A stretch of DNA of 64,000 nt from a virus (IMGVR_UViG_2706796742_000001:23511-87510); one strand, 5' to 3'; shown: positions 6,343 through 56,688, numbered from the stretch's first letter. The notes: generated by a model not told the origin, from the letters alone. Made by a program: numbers and translations.

Positions 6343-6900
6343 ATGAGATATTTGAAGTATGCTTCATGGATTTTCCTAGCTTTGCTAGAACCATTTGCAG
6401 CAATCCTAGCAGTCATCTTAGCACCTTTTGTAGTTCCATTCTACAGTGAGAAGAAAGGGCACTTACCTTTCGGCTTCAGATGGATGGAGACATATGACAA
6501 CCCAATTGATGGTGATAAAGGTCATGTTGAACGATGGGCTAAGATTAGAAAGGTTGGTAAGCTTGGTGTCTATATGCAGAGAGTCGGTTGGCTCTGGAGA
6601 AACAAAGCTTATAACTTCTCTTACCATGTGTTAGGAAGAGATGTAAAAGATGTTACTAAGTGGAAAGGTAATATCAATGTAAGTTCTGACCCTGAAGATA
6701 ATCAGACAGGTTATCTCCTAATGTGGAACAGCAATGCTTGGGGATTATTTGCTTTTGTACCATCAATTAAAGTCTTTGGTAAACAGTTTTACTGGAGAAT
6801 TTATATTGGATGGAAACTTAAAAGTGTTGTCCCAGAAGAAAGAGCATTCTCAAGGGAAAGAGTTATGTTGGCATTCTTTATTCATCCACTAAGAAAATAA
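6343..6900 (+). CDS. hypothetical membrane protein encoded inside the tRNA array
   Basis: 185-aa ORF with AAGAGG RBS; hydrophobic N-terminus IFLALLEPFAAILAVILAPFVVPF; Trp/Tyr-rich. Confidence 0.5.
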   Translation: MRYLKYASWIFLALLEPFAAILAVILAPFVVPFYSEKKGHLPFGFRWMETYDNPIDGDKGHVERWAKIRKVGKLGVYMQRVGWLWRNKAYNFSYHVLGRDVKDVTKWKGNINVSSDPEDNQTGYLLMWNSNAWGLFAFVPSIKVFGKQFYWRIYIGWKLKSVVPEERAFSRERVMLAFFIHPLRK

Positions 6901-6908
6901 AGATTTAA

Positions 6909-6984
6909 AGGGGATTAGTTTACAAGGTTAAAACCTCGGTCTTTGAAATCGAAGAAGTTGGTTCAATTCCAACATCCCCCGCCA
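6909..6984 (+). tRNA. tRNA-Gln (anticodon TTG)
   Basis: anticodon stem TCGGT/ATCGA with loop CTTTGAA, T-arm GTTGG-TTCAATT-CCAAC, CCA; 1-72 position unpaired. Confidence 0.6.
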
Positions 6985-6986
6985 AT

Positions 6987-7065
6987 GCTCCATTACTCCA
7001 ATTGGCAGAGAGGCCAGACTTAAAATCTGTGTTATGTATCGGTTCGAATCCGATATGGAGTACCA
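6987..7065 (+). tRNA. tRNA with anticodon TAA (Leu codon TTA); variable arm shorter than typical class II
   Basis: acceptor GCTCCAT/ATGGAGT, anticodon stem CAGA/TCTG with loop CTTAAAA, ~7-nt variable region, T-arm ATCGG-TTCGAAT-CCGAT, A73, CCA. Confidence 0.5.
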
Positions 7066-7070
7066 AATTT

Positions 7071-7146
7071 AGCGGTATAGCATAACTGGCAATGCAGCAG
7101 TCTCTGAAGCTGTCTTATTAAGGTTCAAATCCTTATGCCGCTGCCA
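7071..7146 (+). tRNA. tRNA-Gln (anticodon CTG)
   Basis: acceptor AGCGGTA/TGCCGCT, anticodon stem GCAGT/GCTGT with loop CTCTGAA, T-arm TAAGG-TTCAAAT-CCTTA, CCA; anticodon arm nearly identical to tRNA-Arg(ACG) at 6248. Confidence 0.6.
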
Positions 7147-7177
7147 CTTCTAAGGGTTCTTACGAGAGTCCTTAAAT

Positions 7178-7253
7178 GTGGCCTTATCATAAATGGTAAT
7201 GACCCATGCTGTGAACATGGTCTATACGGGTTCAAATCCCGTAGGTCACCCCA
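7178..7253 (+). tRNA. tRNA-His (anticodon GTG)
   Basis: acceptor GTGGCCT/AGGTCAC, anticodon stem CCATG/CATGG with loop CTGTGAA, T-arm ACGGG-TTCAAAT-CCCGT, CCA. Confidence 0.7.
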
Positions 7254-7259
7254 ATTTAT

Positions 7260-7335
7260 AGTCCAAGTAGCTTATATGGTTAAAGCGCGTGTCTGAAAAA
7301 CATGAGAAGAGGGTTCAAATCCCACTGGACTACCA
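7260..7335 (+). tRNA. tRNA-Phe (anticodon GAA)
   Basis: acceptor AGTCCAA/CTGGACT, anticodon stem CGTGT/ACATG with loop CTGAAAA, T-loop TTCAAAT, CCA. Confidence 0.6.
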
Positions 7336-7351
7336 ATTTCAAAGGTGCTTA

Positions 7352-8086
7352 ATGAAAGAGATGACAGAACAAGGTAAGGAGATTTTTAATCTCTTAAAAA
7401 CCGGTAGAGGGTTTTCTAATCCCCTTATTACTGGTGCAGCAGTTCTCGGTGGAACCGTAGCTGCCTCTACATCACTTGTAAGCTCTATTAGCTCTGTAAC
7501 AGACCCTACAATAAAGGATAAGCTTATTGCTGCTGGACTTACAACAGTTCTACTTAGCAGCTTTACAACGAGTCTGACAAGCACTACATCAACCACTAAA
7601 ACACTGACAGATTACGGTCAAAAGTCCATTGATGAGTTTTCATCACGTATGCAGGTAGCAAAAGGATATTCTAATGCTATGGGTGCAGCAGGAGAGCAAG
7701 TCGGTTGTACACCTTTTAGTGGTATTATGGGTGTTGCTACAGAATATGGTCAAAAAGCTATTGACACAATTAACAGTGCACTAGATAGTGTTAACGGTGT
7801 GTTAAGTGACTTACAGGATGCTATTGACGAAGGTCTTGATACTATTTCTGATTTAGCTAACCAAGCTGTTAGCAAGATTAATGAAGGTATCTCGAAGATT
7901 ACAGCTTATGCAGACGAAGTTGTGCAGATGATTGAAGAAGAAGCTGCCCTTATTGCAGAGTACCTTAAAACGAATATCAATGGGTTCTTAGCAGGTATCT
8001 TACCAGACTGGTTTGATGATGCTTGTAAAACTGGTGTAATTGACACTATTGCAACACCAGAAATGAAGAACGCATTACAGAAATAA
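7352..8086 (+). CDS. hypothetical Ser/Thr-rich protein
   Basis: track ORF 7289..8086 begins inside tRNA-Phe; internal ATG at 7352 with AAAGGTG RBS is the likelier start; long S/T-rich low-complexity stretch. Confidence 0.5.
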   Translation: MKEMTEQGKEIFNLLKTGRGFSNPLITGAAVLGGTVAASTSLVSSISSVTDPTIKDKLIAAGLTTVLLSSFTTSLTSTTSTTKTLTDYGQKSIDEFSSRMQVAKGYSNAMGAAGEQVGCTPFSGIMGVATEYGQKAIDTINSALDSVNGVLSDLQDAIDEGLDTISDLANQAVSKINEGISKITAYADEVVQMIEEEAALIAEYLKTNINGFLAGILPDWFDDACKTGVIDTIATPEMKNALQK

Positions 8087-8088
8087 TG

Positions 8089-8180
8089 GAAGATTAACCC
8101 TAAAAGGTAAGGGAGCAGTTTGCTAAACTGCCAGTAGCTGAGAAATCGGTGTACCAGTTCAAGTCTGGTATCTTCCTCCA
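8089..8180 (+). tRNA. tRNA-Ser (anticodon GCT), long variable arm
   Basis: acceptor GGAAGAT/ATCTTCC, anticodon stem GCAGT/ACTGC with loop TTGCTAA, long variable arm, T-arm ACCAG-TTCAAGT-CTGGT, CCA. Confidence 0.7.
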
Positions 8181-8184
8181 ATTT

Positions 8185-8260
8185 GAATCCGTGACAGAAA
8201 TGGCTATGTGCCTGTCTGCAAAACAGGTTTATAAGGGTTCGAGTCCCTTCGGATTCTCCA
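8185..8260 (+). tRNA. tRNA-Cys (anticodon GCA)
   Basis: acceptor GAATCCG/CGGATTC, anticodon stem CCTGT/ACAGG with loop CTGCAAA, T-arm AAGGG-TTCGAGT-CCCTT, CCA. Confidence 0.7.
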
Positions 8261-8704: not shown

Positions 8705-10306
8705 ATGGATTTAAATGCTGTTAAGCAGAAGCGAGTGGAAGATGTTAGGAAAGTCCTAGCTGGAGAGTTGGGGCTTTCTGATGAAGTAAAAGAAATTATT
8801 AAATCATTCGGTAAAGACCCCTCTAAATTCCTTCCAACTCAAATTCTGACTTTATTAAGATACACACCAGACCAAGTTAGGCTTATCTTCAAATTAATGA
8901 CTGATAAGAACTATGTAGCACCTCAACCGGGTTCTCAAGAGGTGTTTTTAAATACTAATGCTGACTTGGTTTTATATGGTGGTGCTGCTGGTGCTGGTAA
9001 AACTGCTGCATTGTTAATGGACTCCTTAAGGTTTATTGAAGACCCTAACTATAATGCTGTATATTTCCGTCGAAATACAACACAGTTACAAGGTGGTTTA
9101 TGGCCTGCTGCAAAGAAACTATTTGGTAAGTTTGGCGGGGTTCCTCACGAGCAGAAGATGACTATCACATTCCCTTCTGGGGCAACTATCAAGTTCACCT
9201 ACCTAGAACTTGAAAAGCACGCTGAAGGTCATCAGGGTATTGAATACTCAGCTATCTACTTTGACGAAGGTACACACTTCTCTGCTTCACAGATTTCATA
9301 CCTACAGACCCGTCTGCGTTCTGGTGCTGAAGGTGATTCATACATGAAGATTTCTATGAACCCAGATAGAGACCACTTCATTTATGATTGGGTAGAGCCA
9401 TTCTTAGATGAAGAAGGTTACCCAGACCCTGAGAAATGTGGTCGTATTCGTTGGTATGTTATGAATGATGGTGTGATGGTTTCTGATTGGGAGAGAGACA
9501 AGATTCTTGAAATGTTCCCTCTTGAGATTCCTCAGACATACACCTTCATCTCTGGTACGATTGATGATAACCCAATTCTTGACTTCTTAGAGCCTAAATA
9601 TCGTGGTAAGTTGGAAAACAACACACCTGTAAACGTTGCAAGACTTCGTTTCGGTAACTGGAAGGCTCGTGCAGAAGGTTCAAACTATTGGCAAAGACAA
9701 TGGTGTGAGATTGTTGATTCACTACCAGAAGATGTGTTTGATGTCAGAGCATGGGACTTAGCAGCAACTTTACCATCTGAAATTAACCCTAACCCAGACT
9801 GGACAGCGGGTGTTAAGATGGGTAAATCTAAAAAAGACGGTTGCTATTATATCATTGATGTAGTAAGATTTAGAGATAGACCCTCTGGAGTCGAAACACA
9901 AATTAATTTGACTGCTGAAAGTGACGGTAAGCGAACTGGTATTTTTATCCCTCAAGACCCAGGCGCTGCTGGTAAATCCTATGCAACATCCCTCATCAGG
10001 AAACTTGCCGAGAAAGGTTATCGCGCAAGAGCTAAACCAACAAATAAAGATAAAGTTACCCGCTTTGCGGGATTTTCTGCTGCTTCTGAAGCTGGACTTG
10101 TAAAAGTCTTGAGAGGCAGTTGGAACGAAGCTTACTTTCAAGAACTTGAAGGTTTTTGTGGTGATGGTAAAACTAAAGATGACCAAGTGGATGCTACCAG
10201 TGATGCTTTCAACAGTCTTAACGAAGTTAAATTATTCAAGCCACCATCAATGGGTGCTCATACAGACTTAGTGAGAGGAAACCCATATGAGGGGCTTAGA
10301 CGTTGA
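8705..10306 (+). CDS. terL: terminase large subunit
   Basis: Walker A LVLYGGAAGAGKTAALL; size and position before portal; ATG 8705 with GGAGG RBS preferred over the track's TTG at 8690. Confidence 0.85.
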   Translation: MDLNAVKQKRVEDVRKVLAGELGLSDEVKEIIKSFGKDPSKFLPTQILTLLRYTPDQVRLIFKLMTDKNYVAPQPGSQEVFLNTNADLVLYGGAAGAGKTAALLMDSLRFIEDPNYNAVYFRRNTTQLQGGLWPAAKKLFGKFGGVPHEQKMTITFPSGATIKFTYLELEKHAEGHQGIEYSAIYFDEGTHFSASQISYLQTRLRSGAEGDSYMKISMNPDRDHFIYDWVEPFLDEEGYPDPEKCGRIRWYVMNDGVMVSDWERDKILEMFPLEIPQTYTFISGTIDDNPILDFLEPKYRGKLENNTPVNVARLRFGNWKARAEGSNYWQRQWCEIVDSLPEDVFDVRAWDLAATLPSEINPNPDWTAGVKMGKSKKDGCYYIIDVVRFRDRPSGVETQINLTAESDGKRTGIFIPQDPGAAGKSYATSLIRKLAEKGYRARAKPTNKDKVTRFAGFSAASEAGLVKVLRGSWNEAYFQELEGFCGDGKTKDDQVDATSDAFNSLNEVKLFKPPSMGAHTDLVRGNPYEGLRR

Positions 10307-19962: not shown

Positions 19963-27996
<8,034 letters not shown>

Positions 27997-35339: not shown

Positions 35340-35723
35340 TCAAATACCTGTGCAGCTTCTGTTTTCTAAGAAATACTCAACACCATACATAGCTTTTTGC
35401 ATCAAATCTTCTTTAAACTGGATGCGATGATTGAGCATAGCTTGTACATCAATATCCTCATGGTGCTTCTCTTTAATGTTTGCAGATTGCAGGAAATACT
35501 CTGCAAGAACGCGATACTGATAGTCAGTTACCTTATCAGTCATCTCTGTTAAAGACTCTTCAGAGATTGGTTTAAGCAACTCACCATTAGATATAGCAAC
35601 ACCTTTTACAATCTGGCAAGTGTCTTCTGGAACACCTGACAAGTCCACATTTGGGAGTTCTGTTGCATTGACTGGTAAATTCATTGCCATAACCATTGCA
35701 GCAGCTAATAAAATCTTTTTCAT
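35340..35723 (-). CDS. secreted/periplasmic protein with signal peptide
   Basis: N-terminus MKKILLAAAMVMAMNLPVNA looks like a Sec signal peptide; 127 aa. Confidence 0.5.
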   Translation of the reverse strand: MKKILLAAAMVMAMNLPVNATELPNVDLSGVPEDTCQIVKGVAISNGELLKPISEESLTEMTDKVTDYQYRVLAEYFLQSANIKEKHHEDIDVQAMLNHRIQFKEDLMQKAMYGVEYFLENRSCTGI

Positions 35724-35767
35724 AATGACCTCAAAGTTATATTAAATTTTGTATTACGTTGAGTATA

Positions 35768-35796
35768 AAAATAAGCTATAACACCTGACTTGTCAA
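35768..35796 (-). promoter_or_regulatory. sigma70-like promoter with flanking operator-like inverted repeat
   Basis: minus-strand TTGACA at 35796-35791 then TATTTT after 17 nt; perfect 12-bp inverted repeat AATAAGCTATAA/TTATAGCTTATT (35770-35781, 35803-35814) brackets the -35. Confidence 0.4.
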
Positions 35797-35861
35797 CAGA
35801 TTTTATAGCTTATTTGGCAGATTTTTTATAAGGCTACTGCCATCCTTCCATACCATACTAA

Positions 35862-36045
35862 ACCCGACCTTACCTCACCTTACCTAACCTTACCCCAACC
35901 TATCCTACCAGACCAAACCTTATTAAAAGACCCTGTTTAAAGACCTTTTAAAAAGGTAAGTCTCATTTTAATGTAGCTGAGACTAACTACCCGCACCGAA
36001 CCTAACCGGACCCGACCTGACATAACCGGACCTAGCCTTGCATTG
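35862..36045. repeat. 10-bp-periodic ACC-rich tandem repeat field
   Basis: ACCTTACC x3 at 35867-35893 plus degenerate units, then CCGAACCTAA/CCGGACCCGA/CCTGACATAA/CCGGACCTAG at ~35990-36030. Confidence 0.6.
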
Positions 36046-36153
36046 CCGTACATCACTTAAAAATCCTCTTAGAAGACTCTTAAGTGATGCTGGTGAGTAC
36101 CCGTTGGTTTATGCTGCTCAGTATACTCACCAAATTTTCTATGTCAACAACTT

Positions 36154-37254
36154 TTATTCATAATCCCTAATAACTAACCCAACAGGGAACTGTAAAGAAC
36201 CCTTACGAGTCATCTTCTGGAACTGAACCGTTAAAGGTTTCCCGATAAACTCTTCAGGATGCTCAGCAAGATACTGTTTCTTCTCATGGGTAGTCTTCCA
36301 TGAGACATCCACAAAGACGTTAGGAAGAGTCTCTACAACGAACTTGCCATGACCACGTTTATCGGTCTTTACACCAGTAACTTTAAACTCTTCAGTGTGC
36401 ATCTTCTTGTGCTTAATCAAGAAGTATGAACGGTGACAACACTCATAGAAGGAGTCTTCAGAGATTGAGCGGTACATTGCACCTTCAAACTGAGCTTCAA
36501 CCCACTTATCATGGGCTTCATCAAACTCTTCCCAAGAATTTACACGACGAGACTTAACAGGGACAACTTTACAGCCGTCTCTGAAGTCATTCAATGGTGA
36601 AGTCTCAATAATATCTCTACGCTCAGGCCACGTCATAGTACTGTCACAGATATCGTACCAGTAGAACTGGAGTAGATGTCGGTCTGGATTGTCAGCATTC
36701 TTAATCATAGACACAATATCTTCTAAGTCCCAACCATGAGCATAAATCTCACCATCAAAGTCTTCGACTTGTGGATGTAATTTAAGCAACAAAAGCAAAT
36801 CTGGGATTAGTTCTGCTGGGACGTTGTAAATAGTATTCTCACGAGAATAAGCCGTGAAGCTAACTAAATCAGCGTCTCTTGAAATTCTACAACGAACACC
36901 ATCAAGCTTCGGTTGAGCATCAGCAGGGAACTTCAGATACTTTGCATGGCTAACCTTTGCAGCATCATGAGCAAGCTGTACACCTACCTTCTCAGTATTC
37001 TGTGCAGACTCTTTTGTGTAAGCATAACCTTTACGGTCAACTTGCTTTTTATACTTAGCAGCAACTTCAAAGAGAGCTTGCTGTTCAGCGTTACGCTCAT
37101 TCTTTTTACCGATGTTCTTAGGCTCTGCTGTATACTCTTCAAACATCATCTTGCCATTCTCTTTACCGTAGGTTGTAATAACTTTGTCACCTACAGCAAC
37201 ACATGACCAGACGTTGAAAGAGCCGTCTTTATTTTGTTTGTACAGAATTGTCAT
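36154..37254 (-). CDS. ATP-dependent DNA ligase
   Basis: motif I KLDGVRC (K-x-D-G-x-R); 366 aa. Confidence 0.7.
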   Translation of the reverse strand: MTILYKQNKDGSFNVWSCVAVGDKVITTYGKENGKMMFEEYTAEPKNIGKKNERNAEQQALFEVAAKYKKQVDRKGYAYTKESAQNTEKVGVQLAHDAAKVSHAKYLKFPADAQPKLDGVRCRISRDADLVSFTAYSRENTIYNVPAELIPDLLLLLKLHPQVEDFDGEIYAHGWDLEDIVSMIKNADNPDRHLLQFYWYDICDSTMTWPERRDIIETSPLNDFRDGCKVVPVKSRRVNSWEEFDEAHDKWVEAQFEGAMYRSISEDSFYECCHRSYFLIKHKKMHTEEFKVTGVKTDKRGHGKFVVETLPNVFVDVSWKTTHEKKQYLAEHPEEFIGKPLTVQFQKMTRKGSLQFPVGLVIRDYE

Positions 37255-55946: not shown

Positions 55947-56688
55947 TAACAAGCTCTATAGCTCATCTAAAACGTGCCTAAACAGGGAAACTCTACAGGT
56001 GTAGACAATCCTGTGCTAAATGATGTACGATGTAAGAAACTATATAAAATAGGAGTATTACATGCCAAATTATCATGTTACTGAGGACGGAAGAGTCTTT
56101 AGGAAAAATGGTGTAGAACTTACGCAGTGGAAATCCAACACTGGTTATATGAAAGTAAGGTTTTATGGAAGGAAGAATCGTGACATGTATGTCCATAGGT
56201 TAGTTGCTGAAAAGTATGTACCTAACCCTAACAATCTTCCAATTGTAAAACACAAAGATGATAACAAACTGAACAACCATGCTTCTAACTTAGAATGGGG
56301 AACTCATTCTGAGAATGTTAAAGAAGGCTATGAGAATGGTTGCTACAAGTTTTGTAAGCGTTCATATGCTGTGAAGGCTACACATAAAGTGACAAAAGAA
56401 GTTATTGTTGCTAAGTCAATACGAGAGTTATCTAATGTACTTGGGTATAATCGCAAGACTATCTCTTCAATATTGAAGGGTGTAAAAGAGTATAATAACT
56501 TTGAACATGATTTTGAGTACATTTAAATGCCGAACGACTAACCGTGATGAATGTAGCGGTGTAGGGTCAAGCGACTCGAAATGGTACGCTACTTAGAAAT
56601 AAGTAGAAGATATAGTCTGGACTTACTGGTGACAGTAAGCAGCTTGAATAAAGCGGGGTAAGCGTAGCGAACTTACCTGAACAACAAG
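55947..56688 (+). mobile_element. group I intron interrupting nrdD, carrying an HNH endonuclease ORF
   Basis: exon 1 ends in T, intron ends in G; intron GCTCAT (~55960) can pair with exon end ATGGGT as P1 with terminal U-G; CTAAACAGGGAAACTCTACAGGTGTAGACAATCCTGTGCTAAAT resembles the T4 td intron core as remembered; exon joining restores ...SPMG|CRAFLSPYHNEDGEEFYVGRANIGAVSLNLP. Confidence 0.75.
56062..56526 (+). CDS. intron-encoded HNH homing endonuclease
   Basis: HRLVAEKYVPNPNNLPIVKHKDDNKLNNHASNLEWGTHSEN is an HNH motif; AGGAG RBS; lies wholly inside the intron. Confidence 0.7.
   Translation: MPNYHVTEDGRVFRKNGVELTQWKSNTGYMKVRFYGRKNRDMYVHRLVAEKYVPNPNNLPIVKHKDDNKLNNHASNLEWGTHSENVKEGYENGCYKFCKRSYAVKATHKVTKEVIVAKSIRELSNVLGYNRKTISSILKGVKEYNNFEHDFEYI

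Follow-up and report, generated by a model that had tools for sequence, protein, structure and literature searches.

Two predicted vrRNA guide genes without a Vipr effector downstream of the DNA ligase gene of a Felix O1-like phage

The window, i.e., the whole 64,000-nucleotide stretch analysed here, belongs to a Felix O1-like phage (Felixounavirus), and the gap that follows its DNA ligase gene very probably holds two minus-strand vrRNA genes of the SUSP1/type II VIPR kind, which match satellite DNA and stand without their effector. Leftward transcription from the putative promoter P1, in the direction of the ligase gene, would produce two vrRNAs of about 100–110 nt, each predicted to consist of an unstructured YNNGG tract and a constant hairpin tail. 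One Vipr protomer would then bind each pentamer and the string of NN dinucleotides would read double-stranded DNA, skipping each third base, with transcription of the target being blocked. We infer the expression of these vrRNAs from SUSP1 and from the conservation of P1. The window would accordingly represent a case of orphan vrRNA genes, whose guides cannot act alone.

VIPR systems comprise a minimal RAMP protein (Vipr), an accessory protein (Vap) and vrRNAs of about 100 nt, in which 9–16 YNNGG repeats, with a conserved GGY and a hypervariable NN, are followed by an invariant structured tail (bioRxiv 10.64898/2026.04.26.720920). The NN dinucleotides pair with double-stranded DNA, each third target base being skipped, and the complex silences transcription, with its natural targets lying mostly in a satellite that parasitises the phage (bioRxiv 10.64898/2026.04.26.720920). 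The same work reports that the SUSP1 tracts are sequenced RNAs of about 100 nt that co-purify with Vipr, and remarks that satellites also encode guides (bioRxiv 10.64898/2026.04.26.720920). Vipr is a protein of about 20 kDa, of which cryo-EM shows one protomer per repeat pentamer, with H17, R138, D177, W178 and R179 contacting the two G's and the pyrimidine (bioRxiv 10.64898/2026.04.26.720927); according to the 2026 preprints, within each pentamer the protomer conceals GGY and displays the two variable bases. The VIPR family itself rests on these two bioRxiv preprints, in which the loci were found by protein-based search.

Architecture of the ligase-downstream locus

The first-pass annotation had described a strongly strand-asymmetric field of repeats with a spacing of about 10 bp at 35862–36045, in a 430-bp non-coding gap by the ligase gene. 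Much of this description holds. The gap, 35724–36153, is indeed 430 bp long and ORF-free, and the repeat strings lie where they had been placed, with ACCTTACC at 35867, 35877 and 35887, and CCGAACCTAA/CCGGACCCGA/CCTGACATAA/CCGGACCTAG spanning 35997–36036 (window coordinates). The motif ACCNNACCNNACCNNACC, with at most one mismatch, has 14 matches in the 64-kb window, every one of them inside the gap, as against a chance expectation of 0.11 and a shuffle maximum of 1. The asymmetry is likewise borne out, the plus strand of tract 1 containing 37 C as against 3 G. The extent and the period call for revision: the range given covers most of both tracts but misses their real limits (Table 1), and although the repeats are truly phased and TRF does report a period of 10, it also reports 5. 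Autocorrelation of CC with CC peaks at lags of 5, 10, 15 and 20 (18, 15, 13 and 14 pairs, respectively; 0–6 at other lags). Thus, the true repeat period is 5 nt, with 10 bp as its harmonic.

Read on the minus (gene-sense) strand, the pattern is (YNNGG)n, repeated over one tract of 12 units and another of 14, both within the published range of 9–16 for vrRNAs; a conserved spacer containing a hairpin parts the two. The GG is intact in 10 of the 12 units of the vrRNA-A tract, whose NN string is AC AA AA TA CC TA CA CG CC TA TC GC, and in 11 of the 14 units of the vrRNA-B tract, which reads TT CT AG AG GG AA TA AA GA AA CG TT AT AT. RNA folding gives neither tract any structure beyond that of shuffles (z −0.15 for A and +0.29 for B), as expected for guides held by a protein. 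None of the Rfam 15 covariance models matches 35700–36200 even at E ≤ 1, and across the whole window tRNAs are the sole matches; vrRNAs have no Rfam 15 model yet. The tRNA genes themselves, 25 by ARAGORN and 23 of them confirmed by Rfam, form a dense plus-strand cluster at 3370–8260.

Table 1. Features of the ligase-downstream locus in window coordinates
Feature	Position	Strand	Remarks
127-aa ORF	35340-35723	minus	borders gap
Promoter P2 (TTGACA-17-TATTTT), putative	35768..35796	minus	10/12 consensus match; serves downstream 127-aa gene
AT-rich inverted repeat AATAAGCTATAA / TTATAGCTTATT	35803-35814 / 35770-35781	minus	read from sequence
3' tail Ty of vrRNA-B	35808..35847	minus	conserved AAGGATGG, then hairpin; 3' limit approximate, inferred
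Ty hairpin GGCAG/CTGCC	35837-35841 / 35816-35820	minus	from sequence
vrRNA-B guide tract	35848..35917	minus	14 YNNGG units
Leader Lb (AAAAGGTCTTTAAACAGGGTCTTTTAATAAGG)	35918..35949	minus	precedes vrRNA-B
3' tail Tx of vrRNA-A	35951..35990	minus	GTAGTTAG, then hairpin
Tx hairpin AGTCTCA/TGAGACT	35978-35984 / 35959-35965	minus	z −2.4
vrRNA-A guide tract	35991..36050	minus	12 YNNGG units
Leader La, hairpin CATCACTTAAG...CTTAAGTGATG	36051..36089	minus	precedes vrRNA-A
Promoter P1 (TTGACA-16-TATACT), putative	36120..36147	minus	11/12 match to sigma-70 consensus; directly after ligase stop
366-aa ligase ORF	36154-37254	minus	borders gap

The closest counterpart of these parts is found in Escherichia phage SUSP1, which shares its subfamily with the window phage. 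The SUSP1 locus (L031) likewise follows the ligase gene directly and presents P1 with an identical sequence, La, vrRNA1, a gene of 195 aa and another of 146 aa, followed by the module Lb-repeats-Tx twice, La-repeats-Ty and P2. According to the published methods, the vipr CDS has vrRNA1 immediately upstream of it and three vrRNAs downstream (bioRxiv 10.64898/2026.04.26.720920), which identifies the 195-aa and 146-aa genes as vipr and vap. The 195-aa protein has H17, R138 and R179, with R138 and R179 being invariant in the alignment, and by this homology the effector that the window lacks is a RAMP protein. The order in the window is P1, La-repeats-Tx, Lb-repeats-Ty, P2. It thus resembles the SUSP1 type II VIPR in the slot downstream of the ligase gene, in the promoter, in the La/Lb and Tx/Ty elements, in the hypervariability of the NN positions and in that these, read by the 1-nt-skip rule, find matches in the same satellite family; it differs in possessing two guides as opposed to four and in being devoid of vipr and vap.

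The individual elements are widely shared. The P1 sequence, which also precedes SUSP1 vrRNA1 and is present in 27 related loci, probably drives the vrRNA array, and P2 is conserved in 25 related loci. La is within a few substitutions of the element before SUSP1 vrRNA1 and vrRNA4 and has a predicted hairpin of −10.3 kcal/mol (z −1.6); the Lb element also precedes SUSP1 vrRNA2 and vrRNA3. Tx is the tail of SUSP1 vrRNA2 and vrRNA3, while Ty is that of vrRNA4, and the 66-nt Ty tail has 19 occurrences across 23 related loci. Both tail hairpins show compensatory variants, GTCTCA/TGAGAC alternating with ATCGGA/TCCGAT in the Tx of relatives, and GGCAG/CTGCC with GGTAG/CTACC and GTCG/CGAC in the Ty of relatives and satellites. 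The Tx loop GCTAC is complementary to an upstream GTAG, with which it could form a pseudoknot, the GTAG/CTAC pairing being judged compatible by eye only. The AT-rich inverted repeat at the downstream end encloses the −35 box of P2 and is followed by T's; it could serve as the terminator of the vrRNA transcript, overlapping the next promoter. A terminator scan did not call this repeat because it has too few G–C pairs. Separately, the leader motif CTTAAGAGTCTTCTAAGAGG (36065–36084, minus) resembles a satellite sequence, TTTTAAG(T/C)CTCTTCTAAGTTCG, found just upstream of the guide B target discussed below (L036 ~9555–9575; L043 9537–9556), and the two may represent a common regulatory site copied by the satellite from its helper phage.

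The region matches 258 GenBank phage records, including 120 from Escherichia and 75 from Salmonella phages. The best match, at 97%, is Salmonella phage BPSELC-1, whose complete 87-kb genome is collinear with the window and 94–97% identical to it; when scanned throughout, it shows the repeat tracts nowhere outside the ligase-downstream locus. Two GenBank records annotate the tracts as a bare 'repeat_region', and the literature on Felixounavirus intergenic repeats, including the Bas63 PhageMaP paper, contains nothing on this locus. In 30 further IMG/VR loci the flanks, leaders and tails are conserved, the NN positions are almost wholly different and the tract lengths change in 5-nt steps, such that tracts differ almost entirely between phages with flanks 92–97% identical. 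Relatives carry 2 to 5 tracts per genome, always at the one locus. Across 56 unique tracts, position 1 is a pyrimidine in 95–99% of the units, position 4 a G in 78–79% and position 5 a G in 95–98%, with positions 2 and 3 being near-random; the pyrimidine after GG is T in 86% and C in 9–13%. The guides of the window are unique to its own lineage, being common to BPSELC-1, with guide A partly in BPS17W1. The region downstream of the ligase gene is, as a whole, an insertion hot spot. Variation extends to the segment that separates the ligase stop from P1, with an extra 130–180 bp in humlepung, garuso and SUSP1 (L001 2620–2790; L031 2052–2230), which in humlepung appears to contain a small ORF, and in several relatives the ligase is annotated as two pieces or with additional genes. 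Garuso is vipr+ and humlepung vipr-less, and both come from Danish wastewater, with E. coli MG1655 as the isolation host.

Two readings that do without guide function have to be weighed against this homology. The first-pass annotation had suggested iterons, bent DNA or a replication origin, i.e., double-stranded sites for an initiator or regulator, and the field is indeed non-coding, strongly phased and located in the replication-gene block. In this it recalls the phased short direct repeats near the replication genes of lambda ori, P1 and F incC. However, those iterons are sequence-conserved units of 17–22 bp, spaced at about a helical turn and acting as dsDNA, whereas the window repeats are 5-nt units with variable cores that would act as RNA. 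A period of 5 bp is not one helical turn, and just three of the five positions are conserved, the NN being hypervariable even between near-identical phages; the number of tracts, moreover, varies from genome to genome. The cumulative GC skew has its only turns at ~32 kb and ~42 kb, and none at 35.9 kb; they coincide with the borders of the leftward gene block, where the direction of transcription changes (weak evidence, since phage skew mostly follows transcription). In SUSP1 the homologous tracts are expressed as small RNAs to which Vipr binds, and an origin does not predict NN matches to satellite DNA. Taken together, these points render an iteron, bent-DNA or origin function extremely improbable. 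What survives of the suggested protein-binding array is the one-protomer-per-pentamer binding known from SUSP1, albeit with an RNA from the other strand as the ligand in place of DNA; the HTH protein that had been put forward as the binder gives way to Vipr, the homologous binder, which the window genome does not encode.

A structure-forming element is also very improbable. It could be a two-tetrad G-quadruplex or an R-loop former beyond P1, or else a plus-strand C-rich site for loading Rho, and would act on transcription, priming or recombination whatever the guide function. It would account for a GG at each 5 nt on the non-template strand downstream of a strong promoter, for a C-rich and G-poor plus strand and for the position of the locus in a hot spot of gene gain and loss. 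Yet, the pyrimidine after GG is as conserved as the G's, a feature needed by the Vipr pocket but not by a G-quadruplex; the tract RNA folds no better than shuffles; the NN matches to satellites are specific to the 1-nt-skip rule; and no plus-strand promoter was found nearby. The published reprogramming experiments also argue against it (bioRxiv 10.64898/2026.04.26.720920). Among further candidates, TRAP-like triplet RNA binding, a Shine-Dalgarno-like ribosome sponge, a T7/T4-type primase site array, Chi-like sites, and a two-tetrad G-quadruplex, i-motif or R-loop origin were set aside as not needed given the VIPR homology, a CsrA sponge because the motif is GGU and not GGA, and a plus-strand Rho rut site because no plus-strand promoter was found within ~300 nt of the tracts.

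Guide matches in satellite elements

A pointer to the satellites comes from the region 22150–23100 in the baseplate-hub gene of the window, whose DNA is 70–93% identical to that of a 'phage baseplate protein' gene of E. coli chromosomal elements. Such elements with a baseplate-like gene are present in 474 of 5,426 complete E. coli genomes; they are satellites of 11–15 kb that have yecE, wrbA or tonB as their integration site, in the gene or beside it, and that contain a serine recombinase gene along with tape-measure and baseplate genes of the Felix O1-like kind. We scored guides against ten satellite loci (nine from E. coli/E. albertii chromosomes and the IMG/VR contig L039) using the criterion of the preprint, i.e., an NN match of at least 80% under the 1-nt-skip rule. 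As a positive control, 39 of the 56 unique guides from relatives reach at least 0.8 on these loci, as compared to five of 56 reversed-order controls reaching 0.80, all of them 10-unit guides.

Both guides of the window exceed the threshold. Guide A scores 21/24 (0.88) at L043 9156–9191, in E. coli SY3626, where units 1–10 are perfect and units 11–12 are missed, about 60 nt upstream of a promoter-like site (TTGACA-17-GATGAT). Guide B scores 24/28 (0.86) at L036 9614–9655, in E. coli MRE162, with 23/24 over units 2–13, the misses being units 1 and 14 in addition to a single base of unit 7; its site covers both the ribosome-binding site and the ATG of the first gene in the tape-measure/baseplate block, which encodes 236 aa. 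The two sites fall in the same intergenic/regulatory region of the satellite. Shuffling the order of the units never attained the observed scores (0 of 300 per guide; maxima of 20 for A and 22 for B), and skip rules of 0, 2 or 3 nt gave at most 17/24 for A and 19/28 for B (≤0.71). That both guides match satellite regulatory sites therefore suggests that they are anti-satellite weapons. The perfect 10-unit site of guide A also occurs in 10 metagenome contigs, all of which are homologous to the satellite, and L039, which matches units 1–9 of guide A, is a real satellite-bearing contig. No perfect full-length target of either guide was present in the sequences scanned, and exact full-length guide patterns were found neither in IMG/VR nor in a first metagenome scan. 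Searching the GTDB genomes with the satellite 236-aa protein retrieved a single locus, from E. albertii. There is also a mismatch of hosts, in that the targets were found in E. coli and the closest phages are Salmonella phages.

A different candidate site for guide A was judged to be a chance match. Units 4–12 are exact at L040 6832–6857 and L041 4893–4918 (22/24 over 12 units), in a 399-aa tail-fibre-like ORF of two homologous environmental contigs that represent an unrelated virus and have no similarity to GenBank phages; for 18 specified bases about 1–3 random matches are expected, and the extension (4/6) is marginal.

The satellites themselves furnish guides. L039 has a single vrRNA of 10 units at 8148–8260 (plus) and L044 one of 13 units at ~3700–3810, on the strand opposite to the satellite genes, both with a Ty-like tail and a GC-rich terminator and both without vipr or vap; there are therefore guides that rely on a foreign Vipr. 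A further satellite, L042, contains a 22/26 match to the L044 guide. Against the window, the two satellite vrRNAs score 0.65–0.70, with no convincing target. They are akin to the window vrRNAs in lacking a vipr of their own, such that activity would need the Vipr of another genome, and in the Ty-like tail with its compensatory stem variant. They differ in ending in a canonical GC-rich terminator, and in that a satellite is sure to meet a helper, possibly one encoding Vipr, whereas a vipr-less lytic phage has no such assured partner.

The missing effector and the state of the orphan guides

Searches for the effector were negative in the window and in the complete BPSELC-1 genome. With tblastn, the best E-values were 0.85 and 0.36, respectively, for Vipr, and 0.65 and 1.5 for Vap; an HMM built from 45 diverse Vipr homologues (35–97% identity) returned nothing from either sequence and recovered the SUSP1 Vipr, the positive control, at 5e-83. 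The distance from P1 to P2 tells the same story: it is 388 nt in the window, with no ORF in between, and 367–388 nt across seven vipr-less loci, as compared to 1627–1923 nt in 16 vipr+ loci. In GenBank, Vipr is found at ≥90% identity in 118 records as against 258 for the locus, and about half of the related Felix O1-like genomes thus appear to be vipr-less. This state is commoner in Salmonella phages, with 17 of 75 having Vipr as compared to 77 of 120 Escherichia phages. None of the 5,426 complete E. coli genomes matches the vipr-vap DNA of SUSP1, in a search that excludes only copies above ~65–70% identity.

The orphan arrays appear to be free of decay. P1, the two leaders, the two tails and a pair of full tracts are retained in each of the seven vipr-less loci examined; the fraction of intact YNNGG units is 0.75 in vipr-less and 0.76 in vipr+ arrays, with indistinguishable per-position profiles; and 11 of 13 guides from vipr-less genomes match satellites, as compared to 28 of 43 from vipr+ ones. 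The gap of the window shares 99.1% identity with that of BPSELC-1, the 2-kb flanks being at 96.5% and 94.8%. In a clustering on the 480 nt that follow P2, vipr-less loci interleave with vipr+ ones, and some guides recur in genomes of either class, such as those that L008 shares with L002 and L003. The group is therefore polymorphic for vipr-vap, whether by repeated loss or gain or by recombination. From its arrangement, the vipr-less layout would be the product of one crossover between two Lb-repeats-Ty modules flanking vipr-vap, the one ahead of vipr and the last one.

What such guides do at present admits more than one answer. We place at about an even chance the proposal that they are retained for use with a Vipr supplied in trans, for instance by a co-infecting vipr+ relative. 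A more specific version, in which they free-ride on the Vipr of a co-infecting relative or of another, possibly Salmonella, source, or act as decoys competing for Vipr, is tentative and rather unlikely. The alternative of an inert remnant concerns function and not the identity of the vrRNAs: vipr-vap would have been deleted recently by recombination, leaving a locus without present function that is re-seeded from vipr+ relatives. We regard it as a serious possibility, somewhat short of an even one. The lack of Vipr in the window, BPSELC-1 and E. coli chromosomes, the guides shared across the two classes, the interleaved flanks (BPSELC-1 being 1.2% from the vipr+ L010, L023 and L028) and an architecture exactly as left by a single Lb-Ty module crossover all sit well with such a deletion, and if it was very recent, with frequent recombination with vipr+ relatives, the intactness of the arrays would be explained as well. 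Against this stand the retention of the full vrRNA parts by every vipr-less locus examined even though around half of the GenBank records are without Vipr, the equal integrity of the units, the guides that still match satellites and a gap more conserved than the neighbouring genes. Useless DNA, besides, is normally lost quickly from the genomes of lytic phages.

Relation to other systems and implications

The retention of intact, satellite-matching guides by effector-less phages goes beyond the text of both VIPR preprints, which make no mention of orphan arrays or of vipr-less Felix O1-like genomes. A protein-first search is blind to guide genes that have lost their protein. A parallel is offered by orphan CRISPR arrays and the mini-arrays of phages and plasmids, where guides are likewise apart from the effector genes and some use effectors in trans. 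Unlike these, the vrRNA has no repeat-spacer organisation; its specificity is spread over dinucleotides in 5-nt repeats, its target is read with a gap at each third base and no adaptation machinery is known. In Bacillus, TRAP binds the (G/U)AG triplet repeats of the trp leader as a closed 11-mer ring to bring about attenuation. There too a conserved triplet is combined with two to three variable spacer bases and one protein subunit sits on each repeat, but the TRAP spacers carry no information, while those of the vrRNA are the information, and Vipr forms an open helical filament on the RNA in place of a ring.

Intact, promoter-equipped, satellite-matching guides that have no effector would thus be present in a large part of the Felix O1-like phages, some of them Salmonella phages under consideration for biocontrol. 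Should these work in trans, phage–satellite and phage–phage conflict in this group would depend on mixed infections, and the vipr+ genomes would understate the guide repertoire of the population; under the free-riding or decoy reading, guide and effector would constitute a resource shared at the level of the population and not a per-genome system. Should they be remnants, they would offer a dated series for the rate of guide decay. In either case, the YNNGG periodicity is recognisable in raw sequence and opens the way to a protein-independent search for VIPR-related loci.

Guides of relatives also find matches in the window itself. A 10-unit guide common to L010, L023 and L028 scores 17/20 at 56495–56524 (minus), a score that, by a hand estimate, becomes marginal once the number of guides tested is corrected for. 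The 12-unit guide of a vipr+ relative, L005, from an Lb-Ty module, scores 20/24 at 22688–22723 (plus), within the window's own baseplate-hub gene, a match that exceeds its best among the sampled satellites (0.79), and the VIPR of this relative might cross-target the window phage.
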